Of a stretch of DNA of 55,307 bases, positions 3,706 through 55,300 are shown one piece after another (the stretch's first letter is position 1; each line of letters opens with the position of its first letter). This DNA is from a virus (Duplodnaviria > Caudoviricetes). The translations under genes and the position numbers were made by a program. The notes below the pieces were generated by a model. The model searched no databases. It was not told the origin of the DNA and worked only from the letters and a program-made list of their open reading frames with translations. The stretch covers positions 1 through 55,307 of IMG/VR virus record IMGVR_UViG_3300033143_003628. One strand, 5' to 3'.

Positions 3706-4181
3706 AAGAGCCAATTAAAATAAGATTAGAGGTTACTGGTGATGTGAAAGCGGGTCGAGCACTAAATCAAGCGGCCGCGCAGTTTCATGAAGGTAAAGGA
3801 ACATTGTCTATTATGTTCGAAGGTCTACCGATATATTATAGCGAAGTGTTTTTAAAAGATGTGTACACTACTGCAGATCCTTTTTGTAGCGGACATTTCG
3901 TGGAAGTGGTAGAGGCGGTAGAAGTACTTAAGTGTCCGCATTGTAATGAAACACATCCAAATGATGCCGTGCCGGAATCCTGTGCTCGAAAAATAATAGG
4001 GGTGTTAGGTGCGGAAGTAATCAATTCGGGTGCGGAAAGTCACATCGAAGAAATAGAACAAAAGTGTCATTGTGTTTTGTGTCAAATAGAAACAAAGAAT
4101 TGGTTACAGATGTTTGGCAAAAAGATATGTCACAGATGTGCAACCGAATTATATGATGTAATAAAACTTGAAAGGATGTAA
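3702..4181 (+). CDS. hypothetical Zn-finger protein, probable paralogue of the upstream gene
   Basis: Similar N-terminal domain; CxxC motifs. Confidence 0.7.
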   Translation: MKEPIKIRLEVTGDVKAGRALNQAAAQFHEGKGTLSIMFEGLPIYYSEVFLKDVYTTADPFCSGHFVEVVEAVEVLKCPHCNETHPNDAVPESCARKIIGVLGAEVINSGAESHIEEIEQKCHCVLCQIETKNWLQMFGKKICHRCATELYDVIKLERM

Positions 4182-7108: not shown

Positions 7109-7112
7109 AGAC

Positions 7113-7140
7113 TTGACACAGTGTGTCACTATGCTAAATT
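7113..7140 (+). promoter_or_regulatory. sigma70-type promoter with overlapping palindrome TGACACA-G-TGTGTCA
   Basis: TTGACA, 16-nt spacer, extended TGn-TAAATT; intergenic. Confidence 0.7.
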
Positions 7141-7169
7141 GCTAAATAAGGGAAAGTGAAGGTAAAAAA

Positions 7170-10345: not shown

Positions 10346-10473
10346 ACAAAAAAATAAAAAAGTAACTAAGAAACAAGAAATCACATTTGGCCTAATGCCC
10401 GAGAGCTGGCGTGTTCGGCCAGATAAAATTGTTTTTAAAAGGGCTATAACATTTTCGACAGAGGAAGCTGCCG

Positions 10474-12569: not shown

Positions 12570-12703
12570 AAAGCGGAGTCGGTTAAGCGCCGATTCATTC
12601 ACACTAATGGAACAACGTACCTGGAGCAATAATGGAACAACGTACCTGGAGCAATAATGTATCAGGTATTTTCGCAGACCGACTCTGCTTTTTAGAATTC
12701 ATT
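12558..12703 (+). ncRNA. long RNA hairpin (~27-bp stem) enclosing a 25-bp tandem duplication
   Basis: Arms 12558-12589 and 12673-12703 are complementary; the three substitutions in the 27-bp core all form G-U pairs on the + strand. Confidence 0.55.
12605..12659. repeat. tandem repeat, 2.2 x TAATGGAACAACGTACCTGGAGCAA
   Basis: Two exact 25-bp copies plus a partial third. Confidence 0.95.
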
Positions 12704-12721
12704 TGAAAGGAAATTTCAGCC

Positions 12722-12934
12722 ATGCGACTATTAAAAAATAAAACAAGGATACAATTGGACTTTACAAAAGAAGCCATAAAAGATTTGGACTTTGTTCAGA
12801 AAAAACTAGGTGCGGCTTCGAGGGCAGAAGTCTTTCGCAGATCCCTTAAGCTTATGAAATACGCCCTCGATGAAAATCTTAATTTGCTTTTTGTAAATGA
12901 CGACGGTACAGCAAAAACGTTTATGATTTTTTAG
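12722..12934 (+). CDS. ribbon-helix-helix (CopG-like) DNA-binding protein
   Basis: RIQLDF strand, helix, then SRAEVFRRSL. Confidence 0.75.
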   Translation: MRLLKNKTRIQLDFTKEAIKDLDFVQKKLGAASRAEVFRRSLKLMKYALDENLNLLFVNDDGTAKTFMIF

Positions 12935-13490: not shown

Positions 13491-13657
13491 AGGTCAAAAC
13501 TTACGACCCATCTAAAGTTAGTATGATTGTCGCAGGACAAAAAGTGACAGGTATTTATATTGAACCAAAACAAATACCTGCGAAAAGCTTTCGCGTGTGG
13601 TTTGGACCCTATGAATATTTAATGTTCTACCCTGCATGGTTTGGTGAACTAAAGTGA
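13484..13657 (+). CDS. 57-aa protein whose N-terminus resembles the tail tube N-terminus (not in ORF track)
   Basis: MVKVKTYDPSKVSMIVAGQKVTG...; GGTGG RBS; overlaps the upstream stop. Confidence 0.7.
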   Translation: MVKVKTYDPSKVSMIVAGQKVTGIYIEPKQIPAKSFRVWFGPYEYLMFYPAWFGELK

Positions 13658-13690
13658 CAACACTAAAGTGACAACTCTAAAGTGACAACT
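13649..13690. repeat. 3 x 14-bp tandem repeat CTAAAGTGACAAC(A/T)
   Basis: Read directly from the sequence. Confidence 0.95.
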
Positions 13691-16133: not shown

Positions 16134-16221
16134 CAACTGCCGAAGCCATAACGATTGTAGTTTTTTATTTGGTGCTGTTTCCTTTTATGGTTTGGCAGAT
16201 ATTGAAAGGACATAGAAAAAC

Positions 16222-16249
16222 TTGACACACTGACTTAGTGTGCTAAGAT
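16222..16249 (+). promoter_or_regulatory. sigma70-type promoter
   Basis: TTGACA, 16-nt spacer, TGn-TAAGAT, upstream of the putative SSB gene. Confidence 0.7.
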
Positions 16250-16314
16250 ACAGTACTCTAATTTTTAGAGTACAAAAGTAACGACCTAAAAGGTCGAGAA
16301 AGTGAAAGTGTAAC

Positions 16315-16890: not shown

Positions 16891-16930
16891 AAACCCGAGC
16901 CCTTTCTTTTACTGGAAGGGTTCGGGTTTT
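16891..16930 (+). terminator. intrinsic terminator-like hairpin
   Basis: AAACCCGAGCCCTTTC...GGAAGGGTTCGGGTTTT. Confidence 0.7.
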
Positions 16931-16932
16931 AC

Positions 16933-16961
16933 TTGACACACTGTTCCACCTATGTTGATAT
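16933..16961 (+). promoter_or_regulatory. promoter for the DNA polymerase gene (perfect -35, weak -10)
   Basis: ACTTGACACACTG motif shared with the other promoters. Confidence 0.5.
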
Positions 16962-16977
16962 GTGATGGAGTAAAAAT

Positions 16978-19617: not shown

Positions 19618-19664
19618 TGATTTTAATCCTTTGAAACCACTTGAAATTATTTCAATCAATTAAC

Positions 19665-19693
19665 TTGACACACTGTCTCAAGCGATTTATATT
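19665..19693 (+). promoter_or_regulatory. strong sigma70-type (early) promoter
   Basis: TTGACA, 17 nt, TATATT, with AT-rich upstream sequence. Confidence 0.85.
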
Positions 19694-19738
19694 TAGCTCA
19701 TAACACAGCGATTGCAAAACAGCGAAAGGCAAAACAAA

Positions 19739-19994: not shown

Positions 19995-20204
19995 ATGAAA
20001 ACAAATAATAAAATACCTATTGATGACAGATTGTATACTGTTGTAGGTATAAACGGATTTAGAAAAAGTAATTTAACACGAAGTCAAGCATTTCATTTAG
20101 CAGAACAAACACGTGAACAAATGAAACGTGCCGGATGGCGTGGAGAAGTTAAAGTTTATTATCGAGATGGAAGCGAAGTAAAAGAAGACAACAAAAGGCA
20201 ATAA
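19995..20204 (+). CDS. hypothetical early protein
   Basis: GAAGGA RBS. Confidence 0.65.
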   Translation: MKTNNKIPIDDRLYTVVGINGFRKSNLTRSQAFHLAEQTREQMKRAGWRGEVKVYYRDGSEVKEDNKRQ

Positions 20205-20234
20205 CGCCTAAACAATTTTTGAAAGGATTTTAAA

Positions 20235-20642
20235 ATGGCAAAAGCAAAAAAAGCAAAAACAACTAAGCCCGCAACCCCCCCGACACCCGAGCCCGCACCC
20301 GAGCGCAAGCGCACCGTTCGTTCGACTAAGAAGTACACCACTCAAATGATCGGTGATGTCGAAGTCAAACAGCCCTACTGGGAATCAACCGTGAATGGCG
20401 TGACTAAAGCGTTCACATCGAACACCGAAGCTCACGCATGGTACAAAGAGAACTCGCCCGGTGGCCGCAAGCCCAAACTCTTTTCAGCCATCAAAGCTTT
20501 TCAGAAAAAGCTGGAAGGTATCGAACTTGAAAATCCGGCGCACATGGGAGTGGACACAGAAGACAATGCAAATTCACTCAGGGATATTGCAGCTCATGCG
20601 ACTGACATCATGGTTCGATTTGAAGAACAGGGGGTTAGCTAA
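20235..20642 (+). CDS. hypothetical early protein with basic, Pro-rich N-terminus
   Basis: GAAAGGA RBS. Confidence 0.7.
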   Translation: MAKAKKAKTTKPATPPTPEPAPERKRTVRSTKKYTTQMIGDVEVKQPYWESTVNGVTKAFTSNTEAHAWYKENSPGGRKPKLFSAIKAFQKKLEGIELENPAHMGVDTEDNANSLRDIAAHATDIMVRFEEQGVS

Positions 20643-20647
20643 ACAAC

Positions 20648-20742
20648 GGGGAACGTTTGAGCGTTCCCTTAAGTCTATTCGAAAGTAGATTTAAGGAAGC
20701 GCTTAAGCTTCACAATTCAGCCGTAGGACGAAGCTCCACGGC
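20648..20742 (+). promoter_or_regulatory. structured mRNA leader (long hairpin plus RBS-adjacent hairpin)
   Basis: 22-bp imperfect stem 20656-20707 with G-U pairs; second stem 20720-20742 abuts GGAGG. Confidence 0.6.
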
Positions 20743-20754
20743 GGAGGTTAAATC

Positions 20755-21921
20755 ATGGAACTCTTTAAAGCATCAAACCAATGGCAGACTCGACCCGTAG
20801 ACGAAAGGTTCTGGTCGGTTCAGGAAGCGATGAAACAATGTCGGAATTATTACGCGAATAGTTTTGTAGACGAATGTGATTATCAGAACTTGCGAGTCGA
20901 AGCTTCCGGCGACGACATGAAACTTTTGACAGATAGTAAGGCAGTTGATGAAGTCAAAATTTCGAACTACGCTTTTGGTCAACTCTGTCAGCGCGGCGCA
21001 GTATCCGCCCCGGCAAGTTATCTGCGAAAGCTTCCGCCGACCCTGGCAGCGCAGAACCTGAACTTCTCACTGAAGACATCGAAGCAAGAAAAAAAGGCGA
21101 GCTTACTTATGCAAAAAGTGAACGGCTCGAATCTACTTCGGGCAAGTGTCAGCGATTTATACGAGCGGCTTTGGAACTACGAAATCTTTGACCAGCTTCA
21201 GGAGCTACCCAGGGGATGGAGACCTCCACCAGCTCGGCCCGCCTTTGATGACCCTAGAGCACGACCTGCGACTGAAGCCGATGTCCTGGCGGCTGACACT
21301 GGCGGCATGTTATCAATTAAAGTAGGTGATGAAATAGCACCCGCCGGGATTTACGCTTCCGACCATGACATGTTCGTGTTTCTCATTAACGAAGACAATC
21401 GAATTGAAGAAACACTTTCACGCGGTTTTTTCTTATGGAACTCCGAAGTCGGTGACAAGTCTTTTGGCTATTGTTCGTTCTTATATAACAGTGTGTGTGG
21501 AAATCATATTGTTTGGGGGGCTCAAGGTGTTATCGAAGTTCGGATGCGACACATGGGTGAGATACGAAGCGAAGCTTTTTCCGAGCTGCAGATTGAGATG
21601 CAGAAATATTCCGATAGTTCTGTCAGTGACGACCAGGCAGTTATAGAGACCTCGAAGAAATTGACTTTGGGAGCTTCAAAGGACCAGGTAGTCGCAGCAT
21701 TACTAGGGATTTCGAAAAAGAAAAACATCGTCGGTATTAACACCCGCACAGCTTCTAAAGCTTACGAAATAGCCGAGCAGTATACCGATAGATATGGAGA
21801 CCCGAACACGCTCTGGGCATCTGTGAACGGCCTCACACAGTATTCTCAGGAGTTGCCGCATGCAGACACACGAAACAACCTTGACAGAGCGGCAGGCAAG
21901 TTGCTTGCGATAGCTCAATAG
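20755..21921 (+). CDS. DUF932/DUF945-like protein
   Basis: AFGQLC...AP..YL, LRA.VS..Y.R, GFFLWNSEVG.KS, VCGN, LW...NGLT. Confidence 0.75.
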   Translation: MELFKASNQWQTRPVDERFWSVQEAMKQCRNYYANSFVDECDYQNLRVEASGDDMKLLTDSKAVDEVKISNYAFGQLCQRGAVSAPASYLRKLPPTLAAQNLNFSLKTSKQEKKASLLMQKVNGSNLLRASVSDLYERLWNYEIFDQLQELPRGWRPPPARPAFDDPRARPATEADVLAADTGGMLSIKVGDEIAPAGIYASDHDMFVFLINEDNRIEETLSRGFFLWNSEVGDKSFGYCSFLYNSVCGNHIVWGAQGVIEVRMRHMGEIRSEAFSELQIEMQKYSDSSVSDDQAVIETSKKLTLGASKDQVVAALLGISKKKNIVGINTRTASKAYEIAEQYTDRYGDPNTLWASVNGLTQYSQELPHADTRNNLDRAAGKLLAIAQ

Positions 21922-21934
21922 AAAGGAATTCGAT

Positions 21935-22135
21935 ATGACAAACAAAAAAAGATTTAGATATGAAGGAACTTTTAAAAGGTGGATCGGCAAACCCGATCCA
22001 CATGGTTATGGATCTTTTGTAATTGATTCAGATGATATTCAATCAATCTCTTTAAAACATCTACGTGATAAAAAATTTGGGCATAAAGTAGAGCATATAC
22101 AAGAGTGCGTAGATGGTTATTACATAAAAGTATAA
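21935..22135 (+). CDS. hypothetical protein
   Basis: GAAAGGAATT leader. Confidence 0.6.
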   Translation: MTNKKRFRYEGTFKRWIGKPDPHGYGSFVIDSDDIQSISLKHLRDKKFGHKVEHIQECVDGYYIKV

Positions 22136-22149
22136 GAAAGGAATTCGAT

Positions 22150-22800
22150 ATGACAAACAATAAAAAATACACTGGGCTTTTGAATCTACCTAAACCAATC
22201 GACGTAGCAAGCGCGGCGAAAGCTCCCGCACAAGATGCGCAAAAGGTTGTTCAGCTCGTCGAAGCGCAGCCCATCAAAAAACATGCGGACCTCGAACTCG
22301 CTGTGTCATGGATCGCGGCGATTAAAAAACAGCTGATAGAAGTAGAAACGAAACGAAAATCTTTTACCGAACCACTCAAGCAAGTTGTCGCCGAACTCGA
22401 AAGCTTTTTTAAGATTCCCGAAGATTCTTTGAAAGCATCCGAAGCCGCACTCAAAACAAAAATTTTTGATTATGTTGATAACAACATCTCAAAGCGCGAC
22501 AAACTTCTAACTGAGATCTCCGAATCGAAATCAATTGACACGAAACAAAAGCTTCTGTCAAGGGTCGAAAAATTGGAGATCCCCAAGGTCCCTGGATTGT
22601 CGGTTCGGGAAACCAAAGGCGGTGAAGTTATTGATGCGAATCAGATTAAGTCCTGGGCAATCGAAAACAATCTGCTCGACCTACTCATGCCGGATACGAA
22701 AGCAATCAAAGCCTATACAAAAGCGATTGATTGTGAAATACCCGGCTGGCAGAACACGATTAAAAAGACTCCCGTCATCACTCCCAAACATATCAAATAA
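22150..22800 (+). CDS. coiled-coil phage protein (E..RK..T.PL motif)
   Basis: Start placed at the ATG after the GAAAGGAATTCGAT leader. Confidence 0.7.
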   Translation: MTNNKKYTGLLNLPKPIDVASAAKAPAQDAQKVVQLVEAQPIKKHADLELAVSWIAAIKKQLIEVETKRKSFTEPLKQVVAELESFFKIPEDSLKASEAALKTKIFDYVDNNISKRDKLLTEISESKSIDTKQKLLSRVEKLEIPKVPGLSVRETKGGEVIDANQIKSWAIENNLLDLLMPDTKAIKAYTKAIDCEIPGWQNTIKKTPVITPKHIK

Positions 22801-22870
22801 AAATAAAACGACCCGAGTACTTGCCATGTCTCAAATGCTCGGGTCTACATCGAAAGGAATTAAGATGTCC
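22797..22870 (-). ncRNA. candidate ~70-nt small RNA with anti-Shine-Dalgarno loop
   Basis: Minus-strand promoter TTGCAT(22902-22897), 16 nt, TGn-TACTAT(22880-22875); two hairpins; U-rich tail on the minus strand. Confidence 0.55.
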
Positions 22871-23044
22871 TGCGATAGTATCATAGCACCCGGCAAATGC
22901 AAGCGGAGCTACCCCACGGACACCCAGGCAGCTGTTCTGCCCTTCGTGTGTATGCTCTAGTGTCCTAACCTTGGAAGGACCTCACGACGCTTGTGAGGGC
23001 TCTAATAGTACTATATAATGTACCAATTACAGTGAGGTTATAAT

Positions 23045-23734
23045 ATGAAACTAAAAGGATCCTTTTTAATAATTATTGCGCTCGCGGTGTCTTCACCTTC
23101 AGAGCCCGTTCAGCTCGCCATAGAACATCTTCTCAAAGACGAAATTCCACAGTTCAGAACTCGACCTTATCCACGGCACCCGGTGGCACGTGACCCAGTA
23201 CAACGTGCAAAGCTCGCCGAAGCTATCTCAGCCGCTTCACAAGCTTACGAAAATATTCCTGTGATGGTTCTAGTGGCCGTCGCATATAGGGAGTCAGGGT
23301 TCAGCCAGGACGCTATCAGTTCAGCGGGTGCCAAGTCAGCTTTTCAACTCATGCCCCACACAGCTAAAGAGATAAAAAGTTTTGAAGTTCTATGTGACCT
23401 GCGGTCGATTGAAGGGGCGGCTTATTGTTCGGCAGCTTGGCTAGACATATGGCAGACTCGATGCGGTTCAATGACTGGAAGTCATATAGTTTACTTGACT
23501 GGCAAGTCGTGTCGAACTCAGAACAAAAAGATTCTGTGGCGTGCTCGGGATCGGGTTCGGCTGGCTGCATACCTGCAGAACCGTTATTCACCAGAAAGTT
23601 CGCTTTTGATTTCAAGTTCGGACATGAAGGGGAATCGATACCGCAGCCCATTTTTTGAACGCAGAGCTTTGACCCAACTCTTCCAAGACTCCGAACTGGG
23701 TTCGACCAGCCAAGCGCCACCGACTGCGCCATAG
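23045..23734 (+). CDS. lytic transglycosylase (SLT) with N-terminal signal; candidate endolysin
   Basis: VAVAYRES.F...A.S.AGA...FQLMP.TA motif; hydrophobic N-terminus. Confidence 0.8.
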   Translation: MKLKGSFLIIIALAVSSPSEPVQLAIEHLLKDEIPQFRTRPYPRHPVARDPVQRAKLAEAISAASQAYENIPVMVLVAVAYRESGFSQDAISSAGAKSAFQLMPHTAKEIKSFEVLCDLRSIEGAAYCSAAWLDIWQTRCGSMTGSHIVYLTGKSCRTQNKKILWRARDRVRLAAYLQNRYSPESSLLISSSDMKGNRYRSPFFERRALTQLFQDSELGSTSQAPPTAP

Positions 23735-24285
23735 GTATCCGACATTACATTGTCACACTTGAACCTGACTACATAAGGATTCCATGAAGTATGGCCCGCC
23801 GTCTTGTGTGCGTCCACATGTCCCGTTCGCAGTCCTTCTCGAACCATTTGATCGCGCAACTCGTCAGCAAATCCGCCATCGGTCGCCGGTCCCGGTGCGC
23901 CTATCTCTCCATCTCGAATATCAATCTCGGCGGCAAGGCAAGCATACAAAATAATCTTCACCGACGAAACACAGGATTCCGCTAACGCTTTCGATAGACT
24001 TTGAATGTGTTGTTTTCCAAAACCAAACTGAATTCCTTTCGGCCAACCGTGACCGAAAAAAGCTATCGCTTGCAAAGATTCCCTTTGACTCAACTCTTCC
24101 AGTACTCTGGTACGTCTGACCCCTTTACGAATGCCGACACATTCGACTGGGATCATATTTTTAAGCGGGATAGAATGTTCGCGCTGAAACTTTTTAGCTT
24201 CGGGAATAAATGCACCCGTCGCGTCATGTCGGCCTTTGGCATTTGTACTTGAATAAAACACTAAAATTTTATCGCCGTTGATCAT
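23584..24285 (-). CDS. hypothetical protein with caspase-like HG...AC motif spacing
   Basis: IAFFGHG ... IILYAC. Confidence 0.55.
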   Translation of the reverse strand: MINGDKILVFYSSTNAKGRHDATGAFIPEAKKFQREHSIPLKNMIPVECVGIRKGVRRTRVLEELSQRESLQAIAFFGHGWPKGIQFGFGKQHIQSLSKALAESCVSSVKIILYACLAAEIDIRDGEIGAPGPATDGGFADELRDQMVREGLRTGHVDAHKTAGHTSWNPYVVRFKCDNVMSDTYGAVGGAWLVEPSSESWKSWVKALRSKNGLRYRFPFMSELEIKSELSGE

Positions 24286-24416
24286 TCTGTACCGTTTATG
24301 ATTAACTCTTGTGACACTTCCAAGCCATCAATAATCAATTCTTCCAAAGCTTCATTGCCGTCAACAATCAATTCAGCTGATACCTCTAAGCCGTTAATAA
24401 TTAATTCTTCAGCCAA
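24282..24416 (-). CDS. 44-aa acidic peptide of four 11-residue repeats (not in ORF track)
   Basis: (M)AEELIINGLEVSAELIVDGNEALEELIIDGLEVSQELIINGTE*; overlaps both neighbours. Confidence 0.7.
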   Translation of the reverse strand: MAEELIINGLEVSAELIVDGNEALEELIIDGLEVSQELIINGTE

Positions 24417-24738
24417 TGTTCGGCCTCACATCCAATATAACAGTGTACTTTCGTGGCAACCTAAAAGATGGCGAGCCGCCCGTCGGAGTAAATTCGAATT
24501 CCACCACATGTCTGCCCGCTATTAAATCGGTTGCGCCCCAAGTAATCTGACCTAACTCCGAGTCACTTGCGCCGACCGGTGTAACTGTCTTTGTTACAGC
24601 TGTACCCGTCACCTCATTTTTCATGTGCATTTCTACTGTGGTATAATTGGCCAAATCTAAACCAGTGAAACGGACATCTAACTTCGGTGCATCGTCTACC
24701 GCGACCAGGTTATAAATTATCTGTCTAGTCTGAACCAT
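24409..24738 (-). CDS. BppU-like (baseplate upper N-terminal) domain protein
   Basis: DL..YT.V.MHM...GQITW.ATDL.AG....EFE.T pattern. Confidence 0.6.
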   Translation of the reverse strand: MVQTRQIIYNLVAVDDAPKLDVRFTGLDLANYTTVEMHMKNEVTGTAVTKTVTPVGASDSELGQITWGATDLIAGRHVVEFEFTPTGGSPSFRLPRKYTVILDVRPNIG

Positions 24739-24742
24739 ATGT

Positions 24743-25222
24743 TTACCTCTTCTTTTTCTTTGGCTTTATATCGGCTTTGACTTCGTGCTCGGCAAGAGCT
24801 TCTTTCATAACAATTTTTAAATTTACAAGTCTTTTCTGTTCCCTTGTTTCGTCAGTCCTTTGCAGATTCACAATTGTATCTTTAATACTCTCTTGAGATT
24901 TAGAAACTTTCACAAGTGTGTCAGTGTTCTTATCCACACCGCCCTTAAGTGTATAGAACTGGCCGATTGCGGCCACTATAATAACCAATGTGGCAATGAT
25001 CGCACCAATCTTAAATTTAGAAAGTCCTTCTTTCCATTCGGTCAACCGATCAAGTTCAGATTCCTTAAGGCACAAATGTGGCTCGGCAGCTTTCGCTTTG
25101 GCAGACAAAGCTATCTGCTTAAACTCGTCCAAATCTTTTTCTAATGCAGTCAACTTGGCCTCCGTTGCTTCTCTGTTCGCCTTTTCTTTCAGCGCCTCGC
25201 GCCATGGTTCTGCAGGACACAT
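24743..25222 (-). CDS. single-TM coiled-coil protein
   Basis: IGAIIATLVIIVAAIG. Confidence 0.6.
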   Translation of the reverse strand: MCPAEPWREALKEKANREATEAKLTALEKDLDEFKQIALSAKAKAAEPHLCLKESELDRLTEWKEGLSKFKIGAIIATLVIIVAAIGQFYTLKGGVDKNTDTLVKVSKSQESIKDTIVNLQRTDETREQKRLVNLKIVMKEALAEHEVKADIKPKKKKR

Positions 25223-25231
25223 TTGAAACCC

Positions 25232-25810
25232 TTAATTCTCGTCTGTATGTTCGTACCAATTCAAAGTTACTCGTGCAGAAATTAAATTGGTGACACTTAT
25301 GAGCCTAAATGAATAAGTAGTGTTCTGCTTCAAAACAAATTCCTCTCGTTCGCTGGCTTCCGACGAAACTTTATTGTTTCCTACACCTAAAACAATAGGG
25401 CCATCTATAACAGTTCCGCCGACTGGTGTGGTATCGTCATCTGACACAACCATACCTGAAGTATTTGTACTGTTACGATTTTTGTTTATTGGCGTAATTG
25501 GACTTCCGCCCGCCATCCCGCCGGAAGGTGCTTCTGTGACATTCCAAGTTCCTTCACCAGATGCCCAGACATCATAAGTAATATGCCCCCACTTAGCAGT
25601 ATTGGGCGTAATGATTTTAAAATGCAAAGCATTATTAGCACCTTCACTATCCAAATCCGCAGTGGTTATAGAAAGCTTGTAAGCATCACCCGCATGAATT
25701 TCGTGGTGCGGATACGATATTGTAGAAAGTACATTTGTGGCAGCGTCCGCCATAATCGAAACTAACCTGGTGGCACTTATGCGACCTTTTAATTCTGTCC
25801 ATTTACTCAT
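25232..25810 (-). CDS. putative virion protein
   Basis: Beta-rich, in the tail module; HHEIH.G and P.NKNRNS motifs. Confidence 0.6.
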   Translation of the reverse strand: MSKWTELKGRISATRLVSIMADAATNVLSTISYPHHEIHAGDAYKLSITTADLDSEGANNALHFKIITPNTAKWGHITYDVWASGEGTWNVTEAPSGGMAGGSPITPINKNRNSTNTSGMVVSDDDTTPVGGTVIDGPIVLGVGNNKVSSEASEREEFVLKQNTTYSFRLISVTNLISARVTLNWYEHTDEN

Positions 25811-27039
25811 CCTATTGACCCTCCATGTATTCCTAGACTCGTTGCATTTATATCGCTATCCCCAATCAAAAGGGATCTTCTGTTACTGCAAGCTACTGCA
25901 TTCAAATCATCAGTTGATTCAATGGCCGCATTTATTTCCCAAGGTGCGCCGACATGTTGCCAGGTCTCCGCATCGTCAAAAGAAATATAAATTAATTGCT
26001 TTGTAGCAGCGGGTGTAAGTGTGTAAGTTTCGCCGACCGCAATCCAAATGCCGTTGCCACAATAGTTCACACCTTTAAGAAAACCAATAGCATCTGAATC
26101 AGGTATCGTCCAGGTTACGCCGCCATCCCTGGAAATAATAATTCCTGATTTTGTAGCTACATCTCTTTCACCTACCAGCACAATCGTTCCAGTATCCCAA
26201 CTATAAGCGGCATCCAAAACAAAATCAAAATCCGCATGTATCGCAGGTTGTGTTGTTGTAGCTATCCATACATCACCATCGTCTAATGAATAGTAAGTTT
26301 TTATTGCGTTAGGAGCTGCGCGATCACTTGCTACTAAAAACCAGGAAGTTGATCCCATACGAAAAATTCGAATAATGTTCCATGCGCCCAAACCCGGTGG
26401 CGGTGTGGAAGGTGCAACCCAACCGGTAGTTATGCCACCCGCAGCTATCGAAACATTTCCATTTTCAGATCCGCACATTACAAAATCAGAGTCGGGATAT
26501 TTTGTGACAACAGATTCAATATATTCTGCGCCATGAAGTCCGAACGGTCCAGCGTCAGATCCCGCCCATCCACCAGCACCGCCATTACCGTAATGAATTG
26601 TTCCCTGGTTATTACCACATAAAAAATATTGTGAATCAATTCCTAGACAATGACCTATTGAATCTGTCACAACTGCTCCCGACACAGATGCACCCCAATC
26701 TCTGCCGGAAGGAGTTAGTGAATAATCGACATGCCCATCGACAGTAGCAACCGCTACCCATCTATAAAGTTCTGGATGATAGATAACATCTGTCCATTCA
26801 CCAGCACTCGATTGAAAATCATCTCCGCGAATAAAACATGCCACATTATTGACCACCGCATATTTCATCCATTCGCTTAAGCGATTGAACAGCCAATTTA
26901 TTTTTCTCGCTGGCGGTTTTGTATTTACTACACCGCCCGTATCTTTTTCACCGGAAGTAGGTTCAGATGTGGCACCGAGATCCGTTGCCCATCTTGGCAG
27001 CAAATCGTCAGGCAGATCCATTGTTATTCGCATTGGCAT
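25807..27039 (-). CDS. tail fibre/spike with Asp-box (BNR) beta-propeller
   Basis: N-terminal fibre anchor (KPPARKINWLFN); S.D.G..W repeats. Confidence 0.75.
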   Translation of the reverse strand: MPMRITMDLPDDLLPRWATDLGATSEPTSGEKDTGGVVNTKPPARKINWLFNRLSEWMKYAVVNNVACFIRGDDFQSSAGEWTDVIYHPELYRWVAVATVDGHVDYSLTPSGRDWGASVSGAVVTDSIGHCLGIDSQYFLCGNNQGTIHYGNGGAGGWAGSDAGPFGLHGAEYIESVVTKYPDSDFVMCGSENGNVSIAAGGITTGWVAPSTPPPGLGAWNIIRIFRMGSTSWFLVASDRAAPNAIKTYYSLDDGDVWIATTTQPAIHADFDFVLDAAYSWDTGTIVLVGERDVATKSGIIISRDGGVTWTIPDSDAIGFLKGVNYCGNGIWIAVGETYTLTPAATKQLIYISFDDAETWQHVGAPWEINAAIESTDDLNAVACSNRRSLLIGDSDINATSLGIHGGSIG

Positions 27040-30121: not shown

Positions 30122-30195
30122 AATTAGGTCCTTTCGTTATTAATCGCTTAACTTCCGAAATTTATTTTTCGGCTTTTGATAGCGATTATTTTTTT

Positions 30196-55158: not shown

Positions 55159-55300
55159 GTTATACGGGTGTCACAGGTAGAGGTGTGACGATGAAAGGTT
55201 AATAATAATAGGTGTTTATATACAAGTGTCACACTGTCACACCTTCAATATTAAAAAGTACTAGAGTATAAGTAAAAACAGGGTGTCACAGTGTCACACC
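55142..55300. repeat. cluster of TGTCAC(A) iteron-like repeats around AT-rich DNA; candidate origin or packaging site
   Basis: Exact TGTCACA at 55169, 55227, 55235, 55284, 55292; paired 18-mers GTGTCACA(C/G)TGTCACACC at 55226 and 55283. Confidence 0.7.

Follow-up and report, generated by a model that had tools for sequence, protein, structure and literature searches.

In the virus genome IMGVR_UViG_3300033143_003628, an IMG/VR record of 55,307 bp (CheckV completeness 100%) that was analysed over its whole length and is referred to below as the window, the start of a very small gene on the + strand is faced by an intrinsic terminator on the - strand. This arrangement is the robust part of our findings. 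Both elements lie in a 244-nt gap (22801-23044) between a gene encoding a 216-aa protein and a gene encoding an SLT-domain lytic transglycosylase, at the end of the early arm of the genome. We tentatively propose that the minus strand of this gap gives rise to a 69-nt cis-antisense RNA that covers the Shine-Dalgarno (SD) sequence and AUG of the small gene, in a layout like that of sar of phage P22; it is the reading that we prefer, at somewhat less than an even chance. That a local minus-strand RNA of some kind exists, given a promoter-like site as well as a terminator, we consider about evenly balanced.

A minus-strand terminator and a small-gene start

The terminator letters named in the original prediction, which had been made from the sequence of this DNA, are in place on the minus strand (GACCCGAG at 22846-22839, CTCGGGTC at 22818-22811 and GTTTTATTTTT at 22810-22800). 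The hairpin runs directly into GTTTTATTTTTA, and 12 of the 15 nt after the stem are T. Our genome-wide terminator scan, which recorded hairpins closing 0-2 nt from a T-rich run, gave 119 sites, among which the minus-strand terminator at 22809 ranked 6th by stem energy. Four of the five sites ranked above it lie inside long open reading frames (ORFs) and have broken T-runs, and the fifth, the only cleaner intergenic case, is a clean + strand terminator at 16927 (16895-16960) with a 13-bp stem of -23 kcal/mol followed by TTTT. Clean intrinsic terminators number only two in the genome, the element at 22800-22846 being one of them; this element exceeds chance. The terminator at 16927 abuts the promoter of the DNA polymerase gene. 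A general promoter and terminator scan of positions 20000-26000 omitted the terminator at 22809 because its stem is interrupted. On the + strand the sequence next to the hairpin is UACAUCG, with no U-run, and termination is therefore expected in one direction only.

The facing gene start carries the motif that this phage generally uses. GAAAGGA, followed by a few bases and ATG, is the usual gene start of the phage and serves as its SD motif: although the genome count of 14 against 9.3 expected is reached by 6 of 100 shuffles, the motif is found 13 times on coding strands and not once on non-coding strands. In 7 of these 13 cases an ATG 4-9 nt downstream opens a frame of at least 31 codons, and an ATG of this kind is lacking at all 24 AAGGA sites of the non-coding strands. 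The longer form, GAAAGGAATT, is present at 659, 21921, 22136 and 22852 on the + strand and at 24031-24040 on the - strand (five occurrences versus 0.32 expected), and further GAAAGGA sites lie at 4170, 12108, 12705, 12935, 20221, 12542, 16204, 30129 (-) and 41247 (-). With GAAAGGAATT at 22852, an ATG at 22865 and a frame of 31 codons, the gap contains a normal phage translation start. As to whether the mini-ORF is a gene, the start signal says yes and codon usage is ambiguous; its codon score exceeds that of 98% of out-of-frame windows, and its GC content at third codon positions is an atypical 0.71, compared with 0.41 in the early genes.

A possible cis-antisense RNA

The predicted promoter letters are likewise present on the minus strand, namely TTGCAT at 22902-22897, a 16-nt spacer, TG at 22883-22882 and TACTAT at 22880-22875, and an RNA started from this site would begin 3 nt beyond the AUG. 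Under a looser promoter rule of our own (an extended -10, plus either TTG or at least 4/6 matches in the -35), equal or better sites number 38 in 110,614 strand positions, about one per 2.9 kb of strand. The chance of finding one in a given 100-nt window is about 3.4%, a figure whose true value lies somewhat higher, the rule having been chosen after the site was viewed, and the promoter-like site does not clearly exceed chance. The transcript from 22868 to 22800 (69 nt) folds as the original prediction had claimed, with an ACAUC/GAUGU stem that exposes the 12-nt loop UUAAUUCCUUUC, followed by the terminator hairpin. The fold of the 69 nt has an energy of -21.8 kcal/mol (z -4.25); when seven further 5' bases are included the minimum-free-energy structure pairs the UCCU of the loop instead, and the fold of the 5' part depends on the start point. 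On the + strand, the mRNA is predicted to form a pairing between its own AGGA and UCCU of codons 2-3.

The sequence itself shows the letters, the SD rule and the hairpin with its U-run; that the promoter is active, that the RNA exists and that it has an effect we infer from this layout, in the following way. On the + strand, the start of the very small gene at the end of the early arm faces the terminator of the opposite strand. The mediocre extended -10, sigma-70-type promoter within codons 4-13 of the mini-gene would fire and yield the RNA of 69 nt, which would be perfectly complementary to the start codon, spacer and SD of the mini-gene. Acting in cis, this RNA would block ribosome entry on the mini-gene and might also provoke cleavage of the duplex, and the terminator would additionally halt minus-strand read-through from the late arm ahead of the early arm. 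A cis-antisense RNA to the 31-codon ORF, with the flavour of a type I toxin-antitoxin locus, had been named in the original prediction as an alternative to a trans-acting RNA; its cis-antisense part is the better reading of the layout, and the toxin-antitoxin part fails, as set out below.

Phage precedents for such a unit exist, control of this kind having been familiar for many years in P22 and lambda. The passages on sar in two reports describe an RNA that pairs with ant mRNA and blocks its translation (PMC13397905, PMC2629481). Like sar, the putative RNA is short, runs opposite to an operon, is the complement of the site where translation of the following gene begins, and has a hairpin terminator close to where the gene before it ends; unlike sar, with which it shares no sequence similarity, it faces a 31-codon ORF and not an antirepressor gene (ant). 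Liao et al. in 1987 are said to have placed the sar promoter inside the start of ant, and the length of sar is reportedly about 69 nt. OOP of lambda and P22 offers a second comparison, being described in a section of PMC5415839 as an antisense transcript of 77 nt that lies within an early operon and is equipped with a promoter and terminator of its own. The same components are predicted here, but at cII it is the 3' end that OOP overlaps, with RNase III cleavage as its mode of action, whereas the putative RNA would overlap the 5' end (SD and AUG) of its target. In common with loci of the sar and OOP type, the antisense strand here bears an intrinsic terminator (a stem of -17.7 kcal/mol followed by GTTTTATTTTTA). 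Phage-encoded small RNAs are also the topic of 10.1101/2024.10.31.621285 and PMC12197685. A search of the locus region against Rfam at E values up to 10 returned only a sub-threshold match to RydC and three matches at chance level. If the antisense RNA is made, control of the sar/OOP type would extend to a lineage of uncultivated tailed phages that carry a contractile tail sheath and whose cultured relatives do not exceed 42% protein identity. The features of the locus, and those elsewhere in the window with which they are compared, are collected in Table 1.

Table 1. Positions of the elements at the locus and of related features in the window
Feature	Position	Strand	Remarks
Terminator hairpin, 36 nt (8 bp, 1x1 mismatch, 5 bp, 8-nt loop)	22811..22846	-	Stem -17.7 kcal/mol
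U-run GTTTTATTTTT, continuing ATTTG	22800..22810	-	A-rich tandem-stop stretch on + strand
Shine-Dalgarno region GAAAGGAATT of mini-ORF	22852..22861	+	6 nt between GGA and ATG 22865
Mini-ORF P0004, 31 codons	22865..22960	+	Starts 64 nt past stop of 216-aa gene
5' part of putative antisense RNA, weak 5-bp hairpin	22847..22868	-	12-nt loop complements SD
Promoter-like site TTGCAT-16-TGaTACTAT	22875..22902	-	Inside mini-ORF codons 4-13; predicted start near 22868
Sub-threshold Rfam match, RydC (RF00505)	22796..22856	-	22.1 bits, cut-off 48
Upstream early-arm gene, 216 aa	22150..22800	+	Stop TAA 22798-22800, then AAA TAA
Second hairpin CCUCACGA/UUGUGAGG	22980..22998		Overlaps -35 of SLT gene promoter
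SLT gene promoter TTGTGA-17-TATAAT, 10/12 consensus letters	22991..23019	+	Promoter scan
SLT-domain lytic transglycosylase, secreted, last + strand gene	23045..23734	+	PF01464, E 2.8e-8
ACTTGACACA promoters	7112-7150, 16221-16260, 16932-16970, 19664-19700	+	Sequence comparison
ACTTGACACA promoter	55159-55120	-	Sequence comparison

A hairpin possibly without a local small RNA

Nearly as likely as the cis-antisense RNA, and again below an even chance, is an explanation in which no local small RNA is made and the hairpin either stops minus-strand read-through or structures or protects the + strand mRNA. It takes two forms. In the first, the terminator insulates the early arm from read-through by the late arm, whose end at 23584 has no terminator of its own. 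The last late-arm ORF (23584-24285, -, 233 aa) and the SLT ORF's 3' end converge in an overlap of 150 nt (23584-23734) that leaves no room for a terminator between them, and our scan found no other minus-strand hairpin-plus-T-run above its thresholds between about 24400 and 22811, so that 22811 would be the first good stop for late-arm read-through. The final 50 or so residues of the SLT ORF have the appearance of a low-complexity read-on. In the second form, an intercistronic hairpin of the + strand shields the upstream message or structures the start of the mini-gene, and the apparent U-run would complement the A-rich tandem stops TAA AAA TAA.

Several observations weigh against the proposal of an antisense RNA, and the first two of them, on the A-runs and on the promoter, speak for an account without one. 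The T-run is complementary to the TAA AAA TAA that follows the gene for the 216-aa protein, A-rich stretches likewise follow stop codons immediately at 10346 and 12570, and a mirror arrangement of stop, A-run, hairpin, GAAAGGA and ATG recurs at 30122-30195 with no obvious antisense unit; since A-runs after stops recur in this way, the U-run may be a by-product. (At 30122-30195, which lies in the other arm, the opposite strand reads the hairpin plus TTTTTTTT.) The promoter-like site, of a quality expected by chance in a few per cent of windows, matches the consensus at only 3/6 positions of the -35 hexamer and at 4/6 positions of the -10 hexamer plus TG, was not listed by the general promoter scan, and is unlike the five intergenic promoters of the phage that carry ACTTGACACA, in which TTGACA is perfect and a -10 hexamer follows 16-17 nt downstream. 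The ACTTGACACA family probably represents the main host-polymerase promoters of the phage, and its minus-strand member at 55159 heads the late arm. The codon score of the mini-ORF is below that of 93-99% of in-frame windows from real genes. Finally, the only syntenic relative found, the GC-rich record G002, has an equivalent gap without a minus-strand unit.

Three points speak against an account without a local RNA. The 12 T in 15 nt, and the place of the hairpin among the two best canonical terminators of the 55 kb, argue for selection of the element as a terminator. Read-through from the late arm would entail about 775 nt of untranslated antisense RNA, and Rho would probably stop such a transcript earlier. 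Moreover, a promoter-like site at just the distance at which its transcript would cover both AUG and SD is itself a coincidence of a few per cent.

Complementarity to other gene starts

The original prediction had as its main claim that one trans-acting small RNA silences a dispersed set of early genes, or host mRNAs, its loop UUAAUUCCUUUC occluding the SD of leaders with GAAAGGAATT or GAAAGGA. Such an RNA could be pictured as a timed anti-ribosome-binding-site RNA that shuts off dispersed early genes and that might, through a RydC-like seed, also reach host mRNAs; we now regard this as improbable. The complementarity itself is present as stated: the loop matches the GAAAGGAATT leaders at 659, 21921 and 22136 perfectly over 10 nt, and all of the GAAAGGA(A) sites that had been listed as partial matches exist. 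The terminator with its U-tail is also of the kind borne by Hfq-dependent small RNAs. In our pairing comparison, with a threshold of -10 kcal/mol, the 22-nt 5' part of the putative RNA paired with 36 of 81 gene starts, compared with a mean of 15.0 in 200 mononucleotide shuffles, only 0.5% of which reached 36.

These matches lose their force, however, when they are set beside a different control. As pseudo-small RNAs we took the antisense of each of the other 81 gene starts, and 26 of the 81 paired with at least as many leaders as did the putative RNA. The leader complementarity is real but follows from the sequence being antisense to an SD, as the reverse complement of the SD of the mini-ORF, and since 26 of 81 unrelated controls do as well it carries no special signal. 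Where the SD motif is as strong and uniform as in this phage, the opposite strand of any gene start resembles a regulator of all the others, and complementarity to a shared ribosome-binding site must therefore be judged against antisense-of-start controls. Nor are the GAAAGGAATT leaders the best predicted partners, the starts at 21935 and 22150 ranking 10th-11th and that at 676 falling outside the top 12. The 10-mer identities between leaders arise because start cassettes are reused: the cassettes at 21921-21945 and 22136-22160 are identical over 25 nt (SD, spacer and first four codons; MTNK/MTNN), which, for adjacent genes, suggests that a local duplication took place or that the cassette is a recombination linker, and a second cassette, TGAAAGGAA(T/A)TTTCAGCCATG, is shared by two distant genes (658-678 versus 12704-12724, 20 of 21 letters identical). 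Behind the motif at 22852 come an ATG and an open frame, as at a real start, and an RNA that paired with the general SD would also strike late genes and compete with ribosomes without discrimination. A match of GCCATGTC at the start of ORF 676 (673-680), which had been flagged as possibly due to chance, consists of real letters at a chance-level count (4 in the genome versus 1.38 expected, with 6 of 100 shuffles reaching 4).

Resemblance to RydC

It is slightly less probable still that with the minus-strand RNA the phage copies or mimics the enterobacterial, Hfq-dependent RydC and acts on host targets such as cfa mRNA. RydC is the top Rfam match of the region, full-length (model positions 1-64) and on the predicted strand and span, at 22.1 bits, with E values of 0.047 (251 nt), 0.11 (601 nt) and 0.0024 (this family alone, over the genome). 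Sixteen of the 17 letters of CTTTCGATGTAGACCCG agree with a block that is invariant in the rydC genes of E. coli, Salmonella, Citrobacter and E. ruysiae and that comprises the RydC 5' seed plus the first stem arm; nothing else is identical in the alignment. Within the seed (nt 1-13), which according to the parts of PMC4337610 that concern cfa is sufficient for cfa regulation, 12 of 13 letters are identical, and the single difference, C to U, could still permit pairing with G. The two RNAs also share a GACCCG/CGGGTC stem followed by G and a U-run.

The resemblance is nevertheless a probable coincidence. Scaled to the whole window the E value of the match is about 10, and at the gathering threshold, which for RydC is 48 bits, Rfam gave no match in the window. 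The loop is unrelated, and from the predicted promoter the seed would begin 12 nt inside the RNA, half of it in a stem (GAUGU), and not at the 5' end. RydC forms a pseudoknot in which, as the structural passages of the same report describe, the loop of helix I pairs with a 3' segment to form helix II (PMC4337610). Helix II is absent here: loop-to-downstream pairing amounts to -11.5 kcal/mol, a value reached by 7.7% of shuffled loops, compared with a perfect 9-bp helix II of -16.6 kcal/mol in E. coli rydC. Searched as a two-part pattern, the element had seven matches in IMG/VR, all in GC-rich contexts and without a CTTY prefix or a T-run, and the pattern plus T-run had none in the metagenome scan. 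In bacterial genomes, among the at least 120 matches listed, nine had a CTTC prefix, and at least eight of these nine were in Escherichia, Shigella, Salmonella or Citrobacter. RydC adjoins cybB in enterobacteria, whereas the present element lies in a phage that shares less than 42% protein identity with its nearest cultured phages. Should the host prove to be enterobacterial, the RydC-like 17-mer would merit renewed attention.

An improbable toxin-antitoxin arrangement

Least probable is a type I toxin-antitoxin pair, with the 31-residue peptide as toxin and the minus-strand RNA as antitoxin. In its favour, the SD and AUG that the putative antisense unit overlaps belong to a very small ORF, and the + strand mRNA is predicted to sequester its SD through the AGGA-UCCU pairing noted above. 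Against it, no stretch of the peptide is fit to span a membrane (mean Kyte-Doolittle value of the best 19-residue window 0.25, grand average of hydropathy 0.37, hydrophobic residues confined to the last 11), the general scan of 20000-26000 listed no + strand promoter between 22600 and 22865, and the peptide gave no Pfam match, no usable Atlas match and, in PHROGs, only a weak match to phrog_38731 (E 0.0052). Loci of the SymR/SymE type, in which, as outlined in a section of PMC5415839, the antisense RNA SymR spans a small ORF's SD and start codon, share with the present one the 5' overlap by a (here putative) antisense RNA, but differ from it in that a non-membrane peptide of no known toxin family is encoded here and no dedicated promoter for the ORF was found in the region scanned.

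Relatives and genomic setting

A blastn search against phages gave no close DNA relative, a search of IMG/VR with the two flanking proteins gave no close relative, and a search of genome contigs gave none. For the 216-aa protein only two homologues were found, at 32-35% identity, and a profile scan of IMG/VR added one locus (L002, 29% identity) without a similar gap. With the major head protein, relatives at 42-69% identity were obtained, 45 of 49 pattern matches being confirmed. Among the ten relative records searched, a homologue of the 216-aa protein is present only in G002 and G004, and an SLT gene adjoins it only in G002, where the gap contains a small helix-turn-helix-like ORF and a hairpin with a T-run that reads on the + strand. 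In the five of these relative records that were compared at the DNA level, nothing matched 22780-23050. The SLT protein, used in a metagenome scan, found only two matches, at 33% identity, and within the genome itself copies of the element are limited to chance 11-mers. These sequence searches mark the early region as an orphan.

The phage has the look of a lytic-type myovirus whose two arms converge. The genes on the + strand, from position 1 to about 23,734, form the early arm and include a helicase-like gene, the DNA polymerase gene and many small ORFs; those on the - strand, from 55,106 down to 23,584, form the late arm and include terminase, portal, major head, tail sheath and tape measure genes. 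The sign of the GC skew flips around 22-24 kb, and no tRNA or tmRNA genes were found in the genome. The 216-aa protein has a weak match to phrog_10477, annotated 'exonuclease' (E 1.7e-6). A +1 frameshift that would extend its gene into the open frame 22535-22960 was considered and dropped because the homologues stop within a few residues of the same point and no shift-prone site was seen. An unusual GC island at the locus was likewise dropped: between 22500 and 23300 the local GC content varies over 0.35-0.575, with peaks just as high in the SLT gene.

Two repeat structures elsewhere in the early arm may be recorded. At 13649-13690 the 14-nt unit CTAAAGTGACAACT is present in three tandem copies (96% matches) that reach the start of the helicase-like gene at 13682; these iteron-like units may mark a replication origin. 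At 12570-12721 there is a long, near-perfect hairpin of about 20 bp, preceded by an A-run and followed by a T-run in the manner of a two-way terminator, and within it, at 12605-12659, a perfect 25-nt tandem repeat is present in 2.2 copies.

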